A stretch of DNA of 64,000 nt from Enterobacteria phage ATK47. Position 1 is the stretch's first letter. Each line of letters begins with the position of its first letter. The notes beneath the pieces are model-generated. The model worked only from the letters and a program-made list of their open reading frames with translations. It was not told the DNA's origin and ran no database searches. Of this stretch, positions 777-44,649 are shown in pieces. A program made the position numbers and the translations under genes. Where the stretch lies: the sequence record NC_055708.1; one strand, given 5' to 3'.

Positions 777-1877
777 ATGAAAGTTATGTTTATCCCATCT
801 CGCGCAGTCCCATTTAACCCAGAACGTGTACAAGGTGGTCTTGAAGCAGTACATTTAAATGTGTTGAAATATCTTGTGTCCATCGGTGCTGATATTGATT
901 ATATCGGCTTTGATAATGACACGTTTGGTGACTGGAAGGTTAATCATCATCCTGTTGGTCATCTGACTAAATTCAGTCTAGGTATGAGTTATACTATGGC
1001 TCGTAAGATTGTTGAACTAGCCGGCATTAATGAGTACGATTTCGTTGTTACAATGGAACCGACTAAACTAACCGTTCAGGCAATTAAAGACGCAGGTCTC
1101 TCTAAAGTTCATAAGAATTTTATGGCAACACCATTTGAACCGGTATCTCGTGGCATTGTTCAAATTTGGGACCAGACTATTCAAATTCATAAGAATGGTG
1201 GTAAGAGCTATGCTCCTACTAAAGCCTTCCGTGAATTTGAACGTAAATATTGTTATATGACTTCAGGTCTGACTGACAAAATTGATTATGATTATTGGCG
1301 AGCAAATCCGTTGTTTGAAGCCGAAGATTATCCGGTTATTTGTTTGAATGAGAAACCTGAAGTTCTTCCGGCGACTGATCTGATTATTAGTGCACAACGT
1401 TATGACACTAAAATGCGTCGTACTGATGTTGCTCTTGAAGCGATTAAAGCACTAGGCGAAAATGGTGTAGGATACTGTCCTAGTAAATGGGCACCACCGG
1501 CTAAGTATCCTGTTATTATTGATGCTCCACACAGTGAAATCATGGAACGTCTTAAAACAGCTAAAGCACTTATCAATACGTGTCCTGACACGGGTACGGT
1601 AGAGAATAGTTCTATTGAAGCCATCTCTAAAGGTGTCCCTGTGATTCAGTTAGTTTTTAAGGATTATCCGCACGCGACATTCGAATATGACCCAGATACT
1701 GTGCGTGTAGAAATTGATTCCTCTACTCCTAAGAAAGAAGTAGTTGCGCTTTACACAAAAGCTGTATTAGAATTCACTGACACATACGAAGCTCGAGTTA
1801 AACGTGCTGAAGCAGTATGGAAGAAGTATAACCGAGATGCGGTTGTTGCGATGTGGGATAAAATCTTCACAGCGTAA
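777..1877 (+). CDS. Putative GT-B fold glycosyltransferase (candidate DNA sugar-modification enzyme)
   Basis: N-terminal MKVMFIPSRAVPFNPERVQGGLEAVHLNVLKYL resembles GT-B/GT4 N-terminal donor-domain signature; C-terminal ENSSIEAISKGVPVI resembles the E-x7-E-like GT1/GT4 motif; RBS taagg upstream. Assignment by motif only. Confidence 0.45.
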   Translation: MKVMFIPSRAVPFNPERVQGGLEAVHLNVLKYLVSIGADIDYIGFDNDTFGDWKVNHHPVGHLTKFSLGMSYTMARKIVELAGINEYDFVVTMEPTKLTVQAIKDAGLSKVHKNFMATPFEPVSRGIVQIWDQTIQIHKNGGKSYAPTKAFREFERKYCYMTSGLTDKIDYDYWRANPLFEAEDYPVICLNEKPEVLPATDLIISAQRYDTKMRRTDVALEAIKALGENGVGYCPSKWAPPAKYPVIIDAPHSEIMERLKTAKALINTCPDTGTVENSSIEAISKGVPVIQLVFKDYPHATFEYDPDTVRVEIDSSTPKKEVVALYTKAVLEFTDTYEARVKRAEAVWKKYNRDAVVAMWDKIFTA

Positions 1878-37532: not shown

Positions 37533-37808
37533 ATGTTCCCTAAATATTCTGAAATTGTAAAGGTAGTCTTCAGTCAGATTATTGCTAATAATATGTTTGA
37601 AGTGCTTGATAATGCAGCCGAACTCAGAGTTCATGCTCAACTAACTCATGTACTCAATGCTTTGCTCCCAGACCAAGTAGATTCTATTGCTATTACTCTT
37701 CTCCCTGGGTCTGCGCACGTCATAGTGGTATTTGATCTTGATGGTGATTTAGTTATCCAGTGTGATATCAATTTCGGTACACAAAAAATTGAATGCAAAG
37801 CAATTTAA
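37533..37808 (+). CDS. Hypothetical protein
   Basis: 91-aa ORF. Confidence 0.45.
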   Translation: MFPKYSEIVKVVFSQIIANNMFEVLDNAAELRVHAQLTHVLNALLPDQVDSIAITLLPGSAHVIVVFDLDGDLVIQCDINFGTQKIECKAI

Positions 37809-37810
37809 TG

Positions 37811-37840
37811 GTTTACAACATGGCGGAGTTGTGATACTAT
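37811..37840 (+). promoter_or_regulatory. T4-type early promoter
   Basis: GTTTAC 37811-37816, TACTAT 37835-37840, then ATGAGGAAAT RBS. Confidence 0.5.
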
Positions 37841-37868: not shown

Positions 37869-38105
37869 ATGCTAAGTGAAAACCCAATTACAGTACACGA
37901 ATTTCAGATTAAAGTAAAAGAATTTGCTCAAGCACTCATCAATAAAGTGTCTGAACGTTTCCAGGATGCAACATTACGAGTTATTCAAGAATCTCCACGT
38001 TCTTTTCTCATAATCGTTAATCCTAAAGATGGTGACCAAATTACTAATCTTAAATTAGGCAGTGATGGTCTTGTTGAAGCAACTCGAGTATATGGAACAC
38101 TATAA
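37869..38105 (+). CDS. Hypothetical protein
   Basis: 78-aa ORF. Confidence 0.45.
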   Translation: MLSENPITVHEFQIKVKEFAQALINKVSERFQDATLRVIQESPRSFLIIVNPKDGDQITNLKLGSDGLVEATRVYGTL

Positions 38106-38225
38106 TGAGAGCTATCTCATTACTATCGAGAATGGTCATAAATCTGAGCACTACCAACTTAGCCTGTCTAATCCGGTTAAAGGTATTGTTGAATCAGAAT
38201 CTGTTTATATCTCCTAAGGATTGTT

Positions 38226-39218
38226 ATGTTACCTGTCGTCGGAAAACTTATTTCTCCAAAAGAACTGGCTGAGATTATTCCTTTGTCGGAAGCTTACGCA
38301 TCACAAGTGGCTTCTCATCGCGAACAAGTTAATTCGATTATGAACGGTGAAGACCCACGCAAACTTATTGTTGTAGGTCCTTGTTCAATTCATGACCCTA
38401 TTGCTGCTGTTGAATACGGCAAACGTCTGGCTGAACTTCAAACTCGTCTTCCTAATGTTCTGTTAGTGATGCGCGTTTATTTTGAAAAGCCTCGAACTAC
38501 CGTAGGTTGGAAAGGTCTTGTAAATGATCCATATCTTGACGGAAGTTTTGATATGAACCACGGTCTTATAGTTGCACGAACATTGTGTCGTAAACTTCTA
38601 CGTATGGGACTTCCATTAGCAACTGAAGTATTAGACCCATTCACGATTAAGTATCTTTCTGGTATTTTCTCATGGGTTGCTATTGGCGCACGTACGACTG
38701 AAAGTCAGACACATCGTGAAATTGCTTCAGGTCTACCGATGTGCGTAGGCTTCAAGAACGCAACCAATGGTTCTATTAAAGTAGCTACAGACGCGATGTA
38801 TAGTGCCGCCTGGCCTCATCGGTATATGGGTATGGACGTCGATGGTACTGTAGGCATTGTTGAAGCTGAAGGTAATCAGAATACGCATATCGTATTGCGT
38901 GGCGGGACCAACGGCCCGAACTATCATTCTTCTGATATTCAAGAAGCTTCTAACAAAGCAAGGGCAGTAGGTCTGAATCATTATGTAATGGTTGACTGTA
39001 GCCATGCAAACGCTGATGGGCATTATAGCAATCAAATTGGTATTGGTAAAAAATTAGCAGCTAATGATTTGGTCAAAGGAATTATGATAGAATCGTTCCT
39101 ACATGAAGGAAATCAAAAAATTTCTGATAATATGTCCTATGGCGTTTCCGTTACCGATGCGTGCATCAGTTGGGAACAAACTAAAGAGCTGTTAACTTAT
39201 ATTAATAAGGTTCAATAA
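38226..39218 (+). CDS. 3-deoxy-D-arabino-heptulosonate-7-phosphate (DAHP) synthase, class I (AroG-like)
   Basis: 330 aa; LIVVGPCSIHDP, VMRVYFEKPRTTVGWKGLVNDP, GARTTESQTHREIASGL, GFKN, ILRGG, CSHAN, IESFLHEGNQ, VTDACISW align with recalled E. coli AroG including metal ligands (Cys, His, Glu, Asp) and PEP-binding residues. Confidence 0.85.
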   Translation: MLPVVGKLISPKELAEIIPLSEAYASQVASHREQVNSIMNGEDPRKLIVVGPCSIHDPIAAVEYGKRLAELQTRLPNVLLVMRVYFEKPRTTVGWKGLVNDPYLDGSFDMNHGLIVARTLCRKLLRMGLPLATEVLDPFTIKYLSGIFSWVAIGARTTESQTHREIASGLPMCVGFKNATNGSIKVATDAMYSAAWPHRYMGMDVDGTVGIVEAEGNQNTHIVLRGGTNGPNYHSSDIQEASNKARAVGLNHYVMVDCSHANADGHYSNQIGIGKKLAANDLVKGIMIESFLHEGNQKISDNMSYGVSVTDACISWEQTKELLTYINKVQ

Positions 39219-39799
39219 TGAAAGCTAGCACATACCTTCAGATTGCATATCTGATTTCTCAAGAATCAAAATGTTGTTCATGGAAAGTTGGTGCCGTCAT
39301 TGAAAAAGATGGACGCATTATCTCTACTGGATATAACGGTTCACCTGCAGGTGGCGTTAACTGTTGCGAACATGCATCTGAAAATGGTTGGTTGAAGAAT
39401 AAACCAATCCCAGTCATCGTTGCTGGACATAAAGAAGGCACTACAGCATTTGGACGGGTAGATAATTTTGTTTTAGCCAAAGAACATCGAGCTGCTCATA
39501 GTGCATGGTCTGCTAATAATGAAATCCATGCAGAATTGAATGCAATTTTGTTTGCCGCTCGTAAAGGTAATTCTATTGAAGGTGCTACGTTATATACGAC
39601 GCTTTCTCCATGTCCTGATTGTACTAAAGCTATTACGCAGTCAGGTATTAAAAAGGTTGTATATGCAGAATTATATGACCGATCTCCTGAAAACTGGGCA
39701 GACATTCTTAAACAAGCTGGTATTGAAGTAATTCAGTACTCTCGTAATAATCTTCGTTCTCTGAATTGGGAACAAATCCGAAACTTTTGTGGTGAATAA
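39218..39799 (+). CDS. cd: dCMP deaminase
   Basis: 193 aa; cytidine/deoxycytidylate deaminase zinc motifs HAELNA and SPCPDC. Confidence 0.85.
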   Translation: MKASTYLQIAYLISQESKCCSWKVGAVIEKDGRIISTGYNGSPAGGVNCCEHASENGWLKNKPIPVIVAGHKEGTTAFGRVDNFVLAKEHRAAHSAWSANNEIHAELNAILFAARKGNSIEGATLYTTLSPCPDCTKAITQSGIKKVVYAELYDRSPENWADILKQAGIEVIQYSRNNLRSLNWEQIRNFCGE

Positions 39800-40097
39800 T
39801 ATGATTTTAACTGAACGAGAAACTATGGTTCTTCGTGAACGTATTAAAACTATTCTGTCTGTAGGCGTTCATTGTGTTGTATTTGAAAAGGCTAACGGTG
39901 ATGTACGCACTATGTTTGCTTCGCGCGATGAACTTGAAGTCAAATATGAAAATAACAATCCGGCAACAGAAGTTCGTTATGAACCTCGTGAATCAGTTCG
40001 AGCATTCGATACCAAGTTAGGCCAGTGGCGTTCTTTCCGCCTTGATAAAGTAATTTCGGTTGATGGTACTCCGGTAGAACGTTTGCTTCTTATGTAA
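39789..40097 (+). CDS. Hypothetical protein
   Basis: About 100-aa ORF between cd and 31. Confidence 0.45.
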   Translation: MVNNMILTERETMVLRERIKTILSVGVHCVVFEKANGDVRTMFASRDELEVKYENNNPATEVRYEPRESVRAFDTKLGQWRSFRLDKVISVDGTPVERLLLM

Positions 40098-42296: not shown

Positions 42297-42308
42297 ACTG
42301 AGGAAATT

Positions 42309-42923
42309 ATGTTTAAAGTTAATACTTTTTATAAAATGAATTTTAAAAATGGGGATATTACTCCACGCCTTAAAAACATGTTCTCATATGACCTTATCGA
42401 GCCTTTTGAAGTTTTAGAAGTTACTGATGCCGGCTCAGTTTGTGAAATTAGAACTTCTGAAGGTAAAATTTATCAGGCAGGTGTTGGTAAATTCAGTAAT
42501 TGTTTTACTTTAATATTCTCGACCGATTTAGATGAGCATTTTATTGAATGTCCTAACCCTAAGGTCCATGAAGTTCCATGGAAAGAAACTAAGAAAAATG
42601 GACCGCATGAATACACGAAGGTTGAAACTCCTCACGGCGATATGTGGCGTCATAACTCTCCTTTTGGAAGTAAAGGAACATTTGCTCAACTGCCTAAACC
42701 GTATGACGATGAAAAATACATCGTCGCCTTTTTATCTGAACAGGGTACTCAAGACCGTGGATGCCAAAGAAGTGGTTTACTAAGTGAACTTGAAGCTCAT
42801 AACCAAGCACGTGAATTCGTTGAGAAAAATCCTGGTTCTGAAGCTCTAGTCATGAAAGCAGTTACTCAATATATCACTGCTCAACCTATTGTTCATCCGG
42901 TAGAAATTAATTTCATTAAGTAG
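42309..42923 (+). CDS. Hypothetical protein
   Basis: 204-aa ORF, RBS gagga. Confidence 0.5.
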   Translation: MFKVNTFYKMNFKNGDITPRLKNMFSYDLIEPFEVLEVTDAGSVCEIRTSEGKIYQAGVGKFSNCFTLIFSTDLDEHFIECPNPKVHEVPWKETKKNGPHEYTKVETPHGDMWRHNSPFGSKGTFAQLPKPYDDEKYIVAFLSEQGTQDRGCQRSGLLSELEAHNQAREFVEKNPGSEALVMKAVTQYITAQPIVHPVEINFIK

Positions 42924-42953
42924 TTTACATCCAAGGACGGATTAGAGTATAAT
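42923..42953 (+). promoter_or_regulatory. T4-type early promoter
   Basis: GTTTAC 42923-42928, TATAAT 42948-42953 (spacer about 19). Confidence 0.45.
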
Positions 42954-42977
42954 GATTTCTTTAGTAAGTGGAAAAAT

Positions 42978-43175
42978 ATGAAATTTTTAATAGCACAAAC
43001 AGTCCAATTAAAAGGTGTTGGAATTCCTGGGGTGATTTTTAAAGTTCTCCCTGAATTTAAAACCGCCGCTGGAATTATCAATGAAGCGTATGCTGTTCAA
43101 TGGGTTGATTGGACTTCTGACATACGTATGGGTAAAGAGTTATCTCCTATTAAAGGGTTGAAACATGTTGAATAA
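42978..43175 (+). CDS. Hypothetical protein
   Basis: 65-aa ORF. Confidence 0.4.
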   Translation: MKFLIAQTVQLKGVGIPGVIFKVLPEFKTAAGIINEAYAVQWVDWTSDIRMGKELSPIKGLKHVE

Positions 43176-43377
43176 ATTAATCCAGAAATTGTTAGGTACA
43201 GAAATGATCGAAGTTACTTATCGTGTAACTGACTGCTCGCCTATTCATCCACAGGATGAACCATTTATCAAGACAATTAAAATGCTTAAAAATGACGGTG
43301 GTTTATCTATTGAAGACCGTCTGCCTAGTTACGGCCATTGGGCTGATGTTGAAATTATAAGTGTTAAAGATGTCTGA
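43165..43377 (+). CDS. Hypothetical protein
   Basis: 70-aa ORF. Confidence 0.4.
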   Translation: MLNKLIQKLLGTEMIEVTYRVTDCSPIHPQDEPFIKTIKMLKNDGGLSIEDRLPSYGHWADVEIISVKDV

Positions 43378-43828
43378 ATTAGAAATAAGAAGTAATTTCA
43401 AGTGGCCGTCATGTGCATTAAGTAACTTTGCTCAATGGCCTTTTGTTATGGATGGTATTCAATTCGGAGGTCTTGAAGGATTTCTCCAAGGATGTAAGGT
43501 GAAAAATGTTGAACAACAAAGACGTATATTTGGGTTGTCTGGATTGGCTGCACAGCAAGCTGGAAGGTCTTATGCAAGAGCTCAGGACCGTGGAACTCTC
43601 TTCTGGTTAGGAGTTCCGTTTTCAAGATACTCCGAAGCGTGGAAAGAATTATACACAAATGCATATTTTGAAGCCGCGATCCAAAATAAGGGGTTTCGTG
43701 ATGCCTTACAAGCCTCTAAAGGAAAAATTTTGAAGCACAGCATGGCTAGCCACCTAACAAAAGATGATACAATACTAACTGAAGCTGAATTTATTGATGT
43801 GTTAAACCTATTAAGAGACTCTTTATGA
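43361..43828 (+). CDS. NADAR-like (YbiA/DUF1768 family) protein
   Basis: 155 aa; ALSNFAQWPFVMDG closely matches the SNFAAWP...DG core of E. coli YbiA / NADAR domain (recalled). Confidence 0.5.
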   Translation: MLKMSELEIRSNFKWPSCALSNFAQWPFVMDGIQFGGLEGFLQGCKVKNVEQQRRIFGLSGLAAQQAGRSYARAQDRGTLFWLGVPFSRYSEAWKELYTNAYFEAAIQNKGFRDALQASKGKILKHSMASHLTKDDTILTEAEFIDVLNLLRDSL

Positions 43829-44640
43829 AGCCTACTATTTTGACTGATATTGATGGTGTATGTTTAAGTTGGCAATCTGGACTTCCTTATTTTGCCCAAA
43901 AATATAATCTTCCATTAGAACATATTTTAAAAATGATTCAGGACGAAAAATTTATTTCTCCTGGTAAACTATTCAATACCGACGATAACCTTGGTAAACA
44001 ATTAATAGAAAAATATAATAGCTCTGATTTTATTCGTTACTTAGCGCCTTATTCAGATGCTCTTCGAGTTATCAATAAACTAAAAGAAGACTATAATTTT
44101 GTAGCCGTGACGGCGCTAGGTGATTCAATTGATGCTCGATTGAATAGACAATTTAATTTGAATGCTTTGTTCCCAGGCGCTTTCTCTGAAGTAATGATGT
44201 GTGGTCATGATTCTTCAAAGGAACAATTATTCGAACTAGCTAAAACAAAATATAACGTGATTTGTTACGTTGACGATTTAGCTCATCACTGTGACCATGC
44301 GGCAGAAATTCTTAATGTACCGATTTATTGGTTGGCTCGTGGTGAACGTGATGATATTCCTCGCACTGCACAACGTGTACACACGTGGGATGATATTGAA
44401 TCTCGATTGGTTCCGCCAGAGCATAATTCAAATTCAGATCGTGAAGACCTTTTAAAACGATTGGCCGATTTGCTTAAAGAATCTGGTGCAACAAGTCCAG
44501 GTGCATGGCCTAATCAAATTGGCGCTCCGTCGAATCCGTATACCTGGCGAACCCCAGGACCAACTGATATGCGGCCATGGTGGACGATTCAAAACTTTCC
44601 TTTAGATTCGTCTAAATGGACTTGGTCTATAAATTGTTAA
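43825..44640 (+). CDS. HAD-superfamily hydrolase-like protein
   Basis: 271 aa; N-terminal HAD motif I ILTDIDGV; ATGA overlap with upstream NADAR-like gene. Confidence 0.5.
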   Translation: MKPTILTDIDGVCLSWQSGLPYFAQKYNLPLEHILKMIQDEKFISPGKLFNTDDNLGKQLIEKYNSSDFIRYLAPYSDALRVINKLKEDYNFVAVTALGDSIDARLNRQFNLNALFPGAFSEVMMCGHDSSKEQLFELAKTKYNVICYVDDLAHHCDHAAEILNVPIYWLARGERDDIPRTAQRVHTWDDIESRLVPPEHNSNSDREDLLKRLADLLKESGATSPGAWPNQIGAPSNPYTWRTPGPTDMRPWWTIQNFPLDSSKWTWSINC

Positions 44641-44649
44641 GGGATACTT

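Follow-up and report, generated by a model that had tools for sequence, protein, structure and literature searches.

A phage clade of AroF-like DAHP synthases with a rebuilt inhibitor pocket and a predicted loss of feedback inhibition

Among described systems, the closest to the phage enzyme examined here are E. coli AroF (Tyr-sensitive, class I-alpha; PDB 6AGM/6AGL) and AroG (Phe-sensitive, with the same class and catalytic machinery), together with their engineered feedback-resistant versions (AroG P150L, S180F, D146N; AroF fbr; PMC9529685). Single substitutions in AroG, namely P150L, S180F and Gln151 variants, abolish inhibition (PMC9529685), and one deregulated first enzyme suffices to raise shikimate flux (PMC9529685; PMC8772962). 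Phenazine clusters encode PhzC, an additional DAHP synthase that escapes feedback inhibition, raises shikimate flux and carries the bulk of the flux behind a specialised demand (PMC8772962). Phage genes annotated as 'phospho-2-dehydro-3-deoxyheptonate aldolase' (phrog_5045) are recorded in JS09, Shf125875, Bas47 AlbertHofmann and Kanagawavirus KLB31, and a role as an auxiliary metabolic gene was already proposed for the last of these in 2025 (PMC11845039); in the searchable literature we found no enzymatic, genetic or expression study of any phage DAHP synthase.

We analysed a 64,000-nucleotide stretch of Enterobacteria phage ATK47 (NC_055708.1; hereafter the window), in which an original prediction had recognised a 330-residue DAHP synthase ORF. 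This reading was borne out by Pfam, NCBIfam, PHROG and PDB comparisons and by a structure model (Table 1). The profile search that the prediction had proposed as a check placed the protein inside both Pfam DAHP_synth_1 (PF00793; 4.5e-75, 252.5 bits against a cut-off of 25.5, with ORF residues 36-323 covering profile positions 8-269 of 270) and the NCBIfam aroFGH equivalog TIGR00034 (427.9 bits against 173.2), and it also exceeded the cut-off of NCBIfam subfamily NF009395 (454.8 bits against 343). The match to phrog_5045 extended over the full length (4e-182), and the top PDB sequence match was E. coli AroF (6agm, 7e-105). An AlphaFold (AF2) model with a pLDDT of 90.8 gave TM scores of 0.93-0.95 against solved type I-alpha DAH7PS structures (1KFL, 4HSO, 8E0x) and showed the (beta/alpha)8 barrel with N-terminal extension that defines the class I-alpha fold; it includes the N-terminal helices and the beta6a/beta6b regulatory hairpin (E198-203, E209-214), with residues 1-10 unstructured. 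By family and by fold the product is a class I-alpha DAHP synthase, and it would be expected to form DAHP from phosphoenolpyruvate (PEP) and erythrose-4-P (E4P).

The four motifs quoted in the prediction and their assignment as metal ligands proved right (C53 in GPCSIHDP, H260 in CSHAN, E289 in ESFLHEGNQ and D311 in VTDACISW), the PEP-binding Arg and Lys residues are present (R83, K88, R156, K177, R225), and the E4P motif KPRT occupies residues 88-91 (K88-P89-R90-T91). All 12 catalytic positions are invariant across the 120 homologues examined (120/120), and in 24/24 members of the phage clade described below KPRT and all active-site residues are the same as in AroF/G/H. With metal, PEP and E4P residues all intact and no catalytic residue lost, the competent look noted earlier holds at the sequence level.

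The label 'AroG-type' did not survive. The phage enzyme is 51% identical to AroF over the full length (354 bits) and 47% identical to AroG (309 bits), and it falls below the NCBIfam cut-offs of both the AroG equivalog NF006723 (362.6 bits against 568) and the AroH subfamily NF009396 (385.5 bits against 463). It has Gly at AroG position 211, as in Tyr-type enzymes, where Phe-type enzymes have Ser211, and it carries P150I, Q151K, D155G and S180P in the pocket, along with an altered N-terminal arm. By score and identity the enzyme reads as AroF-like, not AroG-type, a likeness that extends to the fold (model TM about 0.94 to I-alpha structures), to identical metal, PEP and E4P residues and to the retained hairpin. 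Membership of the Tyr-sensitive AroF group was defined by the Tyr-binding residues P148, Q152 and S181, an N-terminal arm and inhibition by Tyr; the phage enzyme retains the proline as P138, but the glutamine has become K142, the serine has become P171 and the arm is truncated. It further differs from AroF by D156 to G, P151 to I and F210 to Y, and by a C-terminal and two short internal deletions (330 vs 356 residues). The N-terminus is 9 residues shorter than that of AroF and 8 shorter than that of AroG, the latter as predicted, and an in-frame stop at 38190-38192 precludes a longer start. Unlike KdsA (KDO8P synthase), the enzyme keeps KPRT and not the arabinose-5-P-type motif, and no KdsA family appeared among the NCBIfam matches of the ORF at E<=0.001.

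Nor was the implied novelty of the gene upheld. Mosigvirus ATK48 matches the window at 100% identity and has an annotated DAHP synthase with cd.2 and cd at its flanks, and tblastn found the gene in 211 phage records, 138 of them at an identity of at least 95% and 47 at 60-80%. The annotated phage aldolases belong to the same family and occupy the same locus beside cd, with no difference at the level of the gene. Already annotated, with its own PHROG family and an auxiliary metabolic role proposed, the gene itself is not new. It has the marks of an auxiliary metabolic gene, being a host-type enzyme in a phage genome with phage flanks and under purifying selection. A survey of the locus, as the prediction had suggested, showed the gene to be absent from RB69, moha and, by annotation and alignment, the pseT-cd interval of T4, so that its place outside the T4 set stands. 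Some 'Bacteriophage sp.' scaffolds of putative phage origin also carry a DAHP synthase. The 'Acinetobacter phage MD-2021a' contig was rejected as an independent phage example, its cobS flank and intact pocket marking it as probably bacterial.

Phage DAHP synthases were monophyletic in 30/30 neighbour-joining (NJ) bootstraps. The NJ tree set the clade beside enterobacterial AroF with weak bootstraps (7/40 and 19/40), and at 7/40 the sister relationship is not robust. Among bacterial homologues the closest reach only 52-55% identity and are spread over several phyla, pointing to no particular donor, and composition gave no signal of recent transfer (GC 0.42-0.44 for both the gene and pseT). The sequences point to a phage-specific clade related to Tyr-type (AroF-like) bacterial enzymes. 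Between genera dN/dS is 0.15-0.17, and the gene is under purifying selection in the phage clade; within Mosigvirus the ratio is uninformative, with just 8-11 substitutions per pair.

The predicted interval between pseT and cd was right, and the exact slot lies between cd.2 and cd, which in T4 holds cd.1. The gene is carried on a 1,113-bp segment that most Mosigvirus records have; in moha and RB69 the segment is missing and cd.2 directly adjoins cd. Two 19-nt repeat copies, 16/19 identical, lie 1,113 bp apart, the length of the indel; their position at the segment ends is suggestive, although two-copy short repeats can occur by chance. The cd start codon overlaps the DAHP synthase stop (TAATG). 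The same gene order, DAHP synthase followed by cd, is found in Kanagawavirus, Marfavirus and Gualtarvirus, cd.2-DAHP synthase-cd synteny extends over four genera, and in Bragavirus two small ORFs lie between the DAHP synthase gene and cd. The small candidate gene inside the segment is without annotation in ATK48, and positions 38106-38225 are 100% identical in nucleotide sequence among ATK48, AlbertHofmann and NHEP11. The early-promoter-like site upstream of cd.2 is conserved with moha and T4 and aligns with the annotated T4 early promoter Pe133295, and the scan found no terminator-like site on the + strand between it and the DAHP synthase gene. The counts in promoter and terminator scans of the region were not above shuffled expectation (promoter-like sites were below it), and only the positional homology to Pe133295 is informative; judged from consensus and positional homology, the site is likely the start of a cd.2-DAHP synthase-cd transcript.

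Table 1 Features of the DAHP synthase locus in the ATK47 window.
Feature	Position	Strand	Basis and remarks
Early-promoter-like site, sigma-70 type (TTTACA-17 nt-TACTAT)	37812..37840	+	Consensus scan; between cd.3 and cd.2
cd.2 homologue, 78 aa	37869..38105	+	Pfam DUF7320 (1.5e-35), phrog_1504; aligns with T4 and moha cd.2
ORF of 41 aa within the segment, candidate gene	38091..38217	+	Hypothetical protein in AlbertHofmann and NHEP11
Direct repeat, left copy, imperfect, 19 nt, ATAATGAGAGCTATCTCAT	38102..38120	.	Resembles the cd.2-stop/cd-start junction
1,113-bp segment carrying the DAHP synthase gene	38106..39217	+	Alignment with moha and T4; moha, RB69 and T4 annotation
Shine-Dalgarno AAGGA	38216..38220	+	Read off the sequence; 5 nt before the DAHP synthase ATG
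Class I-alpha DAHP synthase gene	38226..39218	+	330 aa, ATG start; sequence, profile matches, structure model
Direct repeat, right copy, 19 nt, ATAATGAAAGCTAGCACAT	39215..39233	.	Spans the DAHP synthase stop and the cd start
cd (dCMP deaminase)	39218..39799	+	Pfam dCMP_cyt_deam_1 (1.6e-26); annotation

With the existence and annotation of the gene already public, what is added here is the observation on the regulatory site; we found no report of a clade-wide allosteric-pocket signature in the literature searched. The ATK47 enzyme has F139, I141, K142, G146, P171, Y200 and A214 (AroG position 223) in the pocket. In AroG numbering, 24/24 cluster representatives of the phage clade have Lys or Arg in place of Gln151, Pro in place of Ser180, Gly or Asn in place of Asp155, and Tyr at 209, and 23/24 have Ile in place of Pro150, while at the same positions the approximately 98 bacterial homologues have Gln (98/98), Asp (95/98), Ser/Thr, Phe and Pro; AroF, AroG and AroH all share Pro150, Gln151, Asp155 and Ser180. 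The N-terminal arm measures 6-10 residues in the 24 phage representatives vs 14-51 in the bacterial homologues. Only six positions separate the two groups (150, 151, 155, 180, 209 and 223), and five of the six fall among 15 inhibitor-site or feedback-resistance positions listed a priori from PMC9529685 (hypergeometric P = 5.6e-7), with no clade-discriminating substitution within the active site. Inside the phage clade, whose members are mutually only 53-63% identical, 12 of the 15 pocket positions are conserved, compared to 120 of 302 elsewhere (p = 0.003). The swaps bring in a positive charge and take out a negative. Asp155 has a salt-bridge partner numbered K127/128 in the paper; that numbering mismatched the sequence and the alignment column was uninformative. 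By these comparisons the pocket was specifically rebuilt in the phage clade and then varied less than the remainder of the sequence.

Because the pocket residues are replaced and the N-terminal arm is missing, the phage enzyme is probably insensitive to Tyr, Phe and Trp and would run unchecked in infection. The prediction had suggested feedback insensitivity from the short N-terminus, and the clade-wide pocket swaps strengthen that suggestion. The phage changes fall at positions 150, 151 and 180, which are also those altered in engineered feedback-resistant enzymes (PMC9529685), and the proposed phage role shares with these the logic of a single deregulated first enzyme. Unlike them, the phage enzyme arose in nature, brings together five or six changes and an N-terminal truncation, and has been kept by selection across genera. 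The likeness to PhzC lies in an additional, uninhibited copy; PhzC differs in being a bacterial, cluster-embedded type II enzyme that has no allosteric loop, whereas the phage enzyme is of type I-alpha, with the regulatory hairpin kept and the pocket changed.

On balance, we lean towards an early-expressed, feedback-insensitive entry enzyme that would keep shikimate flux open during infection. The original prediction had offered such a flux-boosting auxiliary metabolic gene as one of two hypotheses, and it is still the best reading, albeit one already published (PMC11845039). The gene is probably transcribed early, an upstream promoter of the T4 early type driving it along with cd.2 and cd. 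The polar side chains that grip the backbone of the inhibitor have been exchanged (Gln for Lys142, Ser for Pro171), a stabilising Asp has given way to Gly146, the bulkier Ile141, Phe139 and Tyr200 line the pocket, and the arm that closes it from the neighbouring subunit is missing. Host transcription is shut off in infection, with the host isozymes staying repressed or feedback-inhibited, and the phage enzyme would then give unregulated entry into the shikimate pathway, which would sustain the chorismate supply for aromatic amino acids and possibly for folate. Aromatic amino acid supply would matter because the phage proteome is Tyr-rich (4.1% Tyr in the phage ORFs of the window vs 2.5% in a sampled E. 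coli region). Against this reading, phages can do without the gene: it is missing from T4, RB69 and moha, whose genomes are similarly AT-rich and whose aromatic demand is presumably similar to that of the phages that have it. Moreover, the terminal branches through TyrA, PheA and TrpE remain host-regulated, so that a surplus of DAHP does not necessarily yield more amino acid.

If the predicted insensitivity holds, coliphages would go beyond copying a host enzyme and strip its feedback control through the very residues that metabolic engineers mutate, and the open-flux role, if true, would provide a testable case of a virus overriding host metabolic regulation after host transcription shut-off, as well as a ready feedback-resistant I-alpha DAHP synthase scaffold for the production of aromatic compounds. 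ATK48 on the one hand and RB69 and moha on the other form natural presence/absence pairs for fitness comparisons.

Strict conservation of the new pocket residues fits a locked pocket and fits equally well a pocket re-tuned to another ligand. We consider it unlikely, though the strongest of the alternatives, that the pocket is not dead and that Lys142, Tyr200, Gly146, Pro171 and Ile141 bind another effector, such as an anionic metabolite, chorismate or prephenate, or a nucleotide-pool signal. The enzyme would then answer to an infection-related signal in place of aromatic amino acids. It would represent an ancient natural lineage in which the aromatic site was rebuilt and not lost, was then frozen across genera and now senses a different metabolite, a switch that would tie entry into the shikimate pathway to the condition of the infected cell; we give this extended version a similarly low chance. 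The excess of conserved pocket positions in so diverged a clade speaks for a re-tuned site, as do the retained beta6a/beta6b hairpin and the charge changes noted above. In AroG structures, however, the inhibitor pocket lies at the subunit interface, and structural constraint alone could therefore account for the conservation. The bulky Ile, Phe and Tyr also resemble the pocket-filling substitutions of feedback-resistant P150L and S180F, the loss of the N-terminal arm takes away part of any binding site, and the gene neighbourhood points to no candidate ligand.

A less probable alternative retains the open-flux enzyme and shifts the benefit to chorismate for folate (pABA) or quinones, supporting the very high folate-dependent synthesis of dTMP and hmdCMP. 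Phages of the T4 type rely on folate enzymes and have folate built into their baseplate, which favours such a need, and the gene, whose translation is coupled to that of cd (dCMP deaminase), sits at the end of an early nucleotide-metabolism block whose frd-td-nrdA-nrdB genes lie about 10 kb upstream. Folate is required in catalytic amounts, however, the neighbouring genes include no pab or fol, and position within a hyperplastic region is a weak guide, given that T4 fills this slot with cd.1, a small, unrelated ORF.

We think it very doubtful that the enzyme serves as a sink for E4P and PEP, rewiring the pentose-phosphate pathway in favour of the pentose phosphates needed for nucleotides and arabinosyl DNA modification, which is a softened form of the second hypothesis in the prediction. 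Non-oxidative pentose synthesis passes through E4P, so by pathway stoichiometry draining it lowers pentose yield. The phage arabinose-5-P isomerase RB69p055 diverts ribulose-5-P (PMC13326640), and such an isomerase co-occurs with the DAHP synthase in Mosigvirus, EcS1, Serratia/Erwinia phages, Kanagawavirus and Proteus phiP4-3. This overlap is confounded by phylogeny, and it is partial, with the isomerase found without the synthase in 57 Acinetobacter phage records, RB69, mar005P1 and Kosakonia 305, and the synthase without the isomerase in about 22 Klebsiella Marfavirus records. An obligate link to an isomerase module was accordingly not supported, there being exceptions both ways.

The prediction's second hypothesis in its full form tied an unusual sugar acid to a glycosyltransferase at 777-1877. 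That ORF is a homologue of RB69 ORF003c, a putative arabinosyltransferase (PMC6024577), and is found in Mosigvirus and Acinetobacter phages. Homologues occur in RB69 and in mar005P1 phages (moha's assigned species), which are without the DAHP synthase, and tblastn gave no match in the DAHP synthase carriers Marfavirus, Kanagawavirus and Gualtarvirus, a decoupled distribution on which the link was rejected. Although DAHP and KDO8P synthases share a fold and PF00793, and related phage genomes encode an arabinose-5-P isomerase elsewhere, condensation of PEP with another aldose (e.g. arabinose-5-P, as in KDO8P synthase) is hardly credible given the AroF/G/H-identical KPRT and active site in all 24 clade members, where no substitution discriminates, the lack of a KdsA family among the NCBIfam matches and the decoupled glycosyltransferase. 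As a separate observation, the DAHP synthase of Aeromonas phage HJ05 also has an altered pocket.

The DAHP synthase (DAHPS) gene was read directly from the sequence as an ORF with an ATG start behind a Shine-Dalgarno motif, and an upstream in-frame stop makes a longer N-terminus impossible. The protein matched Pfam DAHP_synth_1 (4.5e-75), phrog_5045 'phospho-2-dehydro-3-deoxyheptonate aldolase' (4e-182), and the NCBIfam aroFGH equivalog TIGR00034 (428 bits, cut-off 173); a PDB search returned E. coli AroF, Neisseria DAH7PS, and AroG with E-values between 1e-105 and 1e-91, and an AlphaFold model (pLDDT 90.8) superposed on solved type Iα enzymes with TM values of 0.93-0.95. The presence of a DAHP synthase ORF, as proposed in the original prediction, is thus confirmed by sequence, profiles, PDB matches, and the structure model. 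Its designation as AroG-type did not hold: because identity was highest to AroF (51%, compared with 47% for AroG and 44% for AroH in alignment with the E. coli K-12 isozymes), the NCBIfam AroG and AroH cut-offs were both failed, and Gly occupies the AroG-211 specificity position as in Tyr-type enzymes, AroF-like is the better label on sequence grounds.

In the alignment with K-12 AroF, AroG, and AroH, every catalytic residue named beforehand was recovered, with C53, H260, E289, and D311 as metal ligands and R83, K88, R156, K177, and R225 as PEP ligands; the KPRT erythrose-4-P (E4P) motif is present at residues 88-91, and all 12 catalytic positions were invariant in 120/120 homologues. The sole low-confidence stretch of the model (pLDDT <50) is the KPRTTV loop, the E4P-binding beta2-alpha2 loop, which is likewise disordered in substrate-free crystal structures. 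Between genera, dN/dS was 0.15-0.17, with dS partly saturated. These analyses show that the class Iα DAHP synthase, which is predicted to be active, is intact and evolves under purifying selection.

A homologue search split the family sharply in two. The 24 phage-type cluster representatives have 319-343 aa and 55-98% identity, and several are encoded on ~170-kb contigs; the bacterial homologues have 341-388 aa and reach at most 55% identity. Monophyly of the phage group was recovered in 30/30 neighbor-joining bootstraps; no bacterial lineage was firmly supported as its sister. An unbiased scan for positions at least 90% conserved within each group and differing between them returned only six: AroG 150, 151, 155, 180, 209, and 223. 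Five of the six are among 15 positions listed a priori as lying in the inhibitor site or conferring feedback resistance (PMC9529685; hypergeometric P = 5.6e-7). Bacterial Gln151 (98/98), Ser180 (97/98), and Asp155 (95/98) are replaced in the phage clade by Lys (Arg in one), Pro in all, and Gly (Asn in one), respectively, along with Pro150 by Ile and Phe209 by Tyr. Gln151/152 and Ser180/181 bind the inhibitor main chain, Asp155/156 makes a stabilising salt bridge, and P150L, S180F, and Gln151 variants are feedback-resistant (PMC9529685). Within the phage clade, where pairwise identity falls to 53%, the former pocket was more conserved than the remaining protein (12/15 versus 120/302 positions, p = 0.003), a pattern indicative of a site rebuilt and then held fixed rather than decaying. 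The N-terminal arm is 6-10 aa in the phage clade and 14-51 aa in bacteria; as originally stated, the N-terminus of the ATK47 protein falls short of that of AroG by 8 aa (and of that of AroF by 9 aa). By these comparisons, the phage clade shows a clade-specific remodelled regulatory site, and the earlier guess of insensitivity from the short N-terminus becomes a specific prediction resting on this site. Separately, the unrelated 79-kb Aeromonas phage HJ05 (OQ594355.1, L010:3899-5062) encodes a 387-aa DAHP synthase (38% identity) with intact catalytic residues, a long N-terminus, and an altered pocket (Q151H, D155P, S180P, F209V), which may be an independent deregulated phage copy.

We infer that the phage enzyme is produced early and does not respond to Tyr, Phe, or Trp. 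Because host transcription is shut off in T4-type infection, aroF/G/H cannot be derepressed, and the host isozymes stay feedback-inhibited; an insensitive first enzyme would open shikimate flux in the infected cell. Deregulation of the first enzyme alone raises this flux in the case of PhzC and engineered fbr alleles (PMC8772962), which the phage enzyme would resemble if insensitive as predicted. Tyr usage is 4.1% in phage ORFs of the window and 2.5% in a sample region of E. coli, a modest demand-side argument. Weighing against this mechanism, T4 and RB69 thrive without the gene and terminal branch enzymes remain under host regulation. The strict conservation of the new pocket residues and the β6a/β6b hairpin retained in the model also allow an allosteric site re-tuned to a new effector. 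Alternatively, chorismate could be needed for folate rather than amino acids, for which the one supporting observation is that the gene lies next to cd and the frd-td-nrd block. The enzyme could also act as a sink for E4P and PEP, coupled to the supply of pentose for arabinosyl modification of DNA, given that it co-occurs with a phage arabinose-5-P isomerase (RB69p055, L021:5964-6599) in several genera (Mosigvirus, EcS1, Serratia/Erwinia phages, Kanagawavirus, and Proteus phiP4-3); however, the isomerase occurs alone in Acinetobacter phages, RB69, and Kosakonia 305, and DAHPS alone in ~22 Klebsiella Marfavirus records, and the partial co-occurrence may merely mirror shared ancestry. The initial hypothesis of a switch in substrate, with a link to the ORF at 777-1877, was rejected, given decoupled distributions, an intact E4P motif, and no discriminating substitution in the active site. 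That ORF does stand as a putative glycosyltransferase. It lacks a Pfam match, is 98.9% identical to RB69 ORF003c, which has been proposed as the arabinosyl transferase behind the modified cytosine that RB69-like phages carry, and has homologues only in ~154 Mosigvirus and ~55 Acinetobacter phage records.

The window and phage ATK48 (KT184310.1, genus Mosigvirus) share 100% identity. By tblastn, the protein was found in 211 phage records: 138 at ≥95% identity (Mosigvirus), 47 at 60-80% (Kanagawavirus, Marfavirus, Gualtarvirus, Serratia/Erwinia phages, and EcS1), and 26 below 60%, including Proteus Bragavirus at ~58%; ~138 of ~150 Mosigvirus records carry the gene. The gene is real and intact, and is already known at the level of annotation: its annotation is public, and an auxiliary metabolic role in aromatic amino acids was proposed in 2025 for the Kanagawavirus KLB31 homologue (PMC11845039). 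Searches of the accessible literature turned up no phage DAHPS that has been examined biochemically or genetically. The contribution of this analysis is to show, with sharp statistics, that the feedback site has been rebuilt across the whole clade.

The originally proposed location between pseT and cd was too coarse, the exact slot being cd.2 to cd; the absence of the gene from the T4 gene set there was borne out, and T4 has a small unrelated ORF, cd.1, in the slot. In moha and in RB69 (the type phage of Mosigvirus), cd directly adjoins cd.2. The segment that moha lacks is 1,113 bp long and has, at either end, a copy of an imperfect direct repeat of the stop/start junction; this placement, with matching spacing, suggests gain or loss through short-homology recombination. 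The cd.2-DAHPS-cd order is kept in Kanagawavirus, Marfavirus, and Gualtarvirus, with 61-77% identity at the protein level, which makes the gene a long-standing occupant of this slot. No terminator-like site was seen after the promoter-like sequence on the + strand, and the stop codon of DAHPS shares bases with the start codon of cd (TAATG); the two genes are probably transcribed together early.

Features of the DAHPS locus and other ORFs discussed
Feature	Position	Strand	Remark
Putative glycosyltransferase ORF	777-1877	+	366 aa
cd.3	37533-37808		
Promoter-like TTTACA-N17-TACTAT	37812-37840	+	in alignment with Pe133295, an annotated early promoter of T4
cd.2	37869-38105		upstream neighbour of DAHPS
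Small ORF	38091-38217	+	41 aa, between cd.2 and DAHPS
19-nt direct repeat	38102-38120 and 39215-39233		16/19 identical; spacing equals indel length
In-frame stop	38190-38192	+	upstream of DAHPS ATG, from sequence
Shine-Dalgarno AAGGA	38216-38220	+	upstream of DAHPS ATG, from sequence
DAHPS	38226-39218	+	330 aa
KPRTTV loop	38490-38507		residues 89-94
cd	39218-39799		downstream neighbour of DAHPS
31.1 homologue	39789-40097	+	
ORF without CDS in ATK48 record	42309-42923		204 aa

The small ORF, inside the segment missing from RB69 and moha, is labelled as a hypothetical protein in the annotations of AlbertHofmann and NHEP11 and is unannotated in ATK48; the stretch 38106-38225 has 100% nucleotide identity among the three Mosigviruses compared. 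At cd.3, ATK48 shares only 72-74% nucleotide identity with two other Mosigviruses, and at the adjoining cd.2 and DAHPS 99-100%, an abrupt allelic replacement of the kind usual in T4-like mosaicism. The T4 31.1 homologue carries a Pfam WYL_2 (Sm-like SH3) domain; its name in the ATK48 record, 'tail fibers protein', is probably a misannotation carried over from a weak PHROG tail-fibre match. That record also lacks CDS at ~42297-44649, corresponding to the RB69 30.x gene area, despite clear ORFs.
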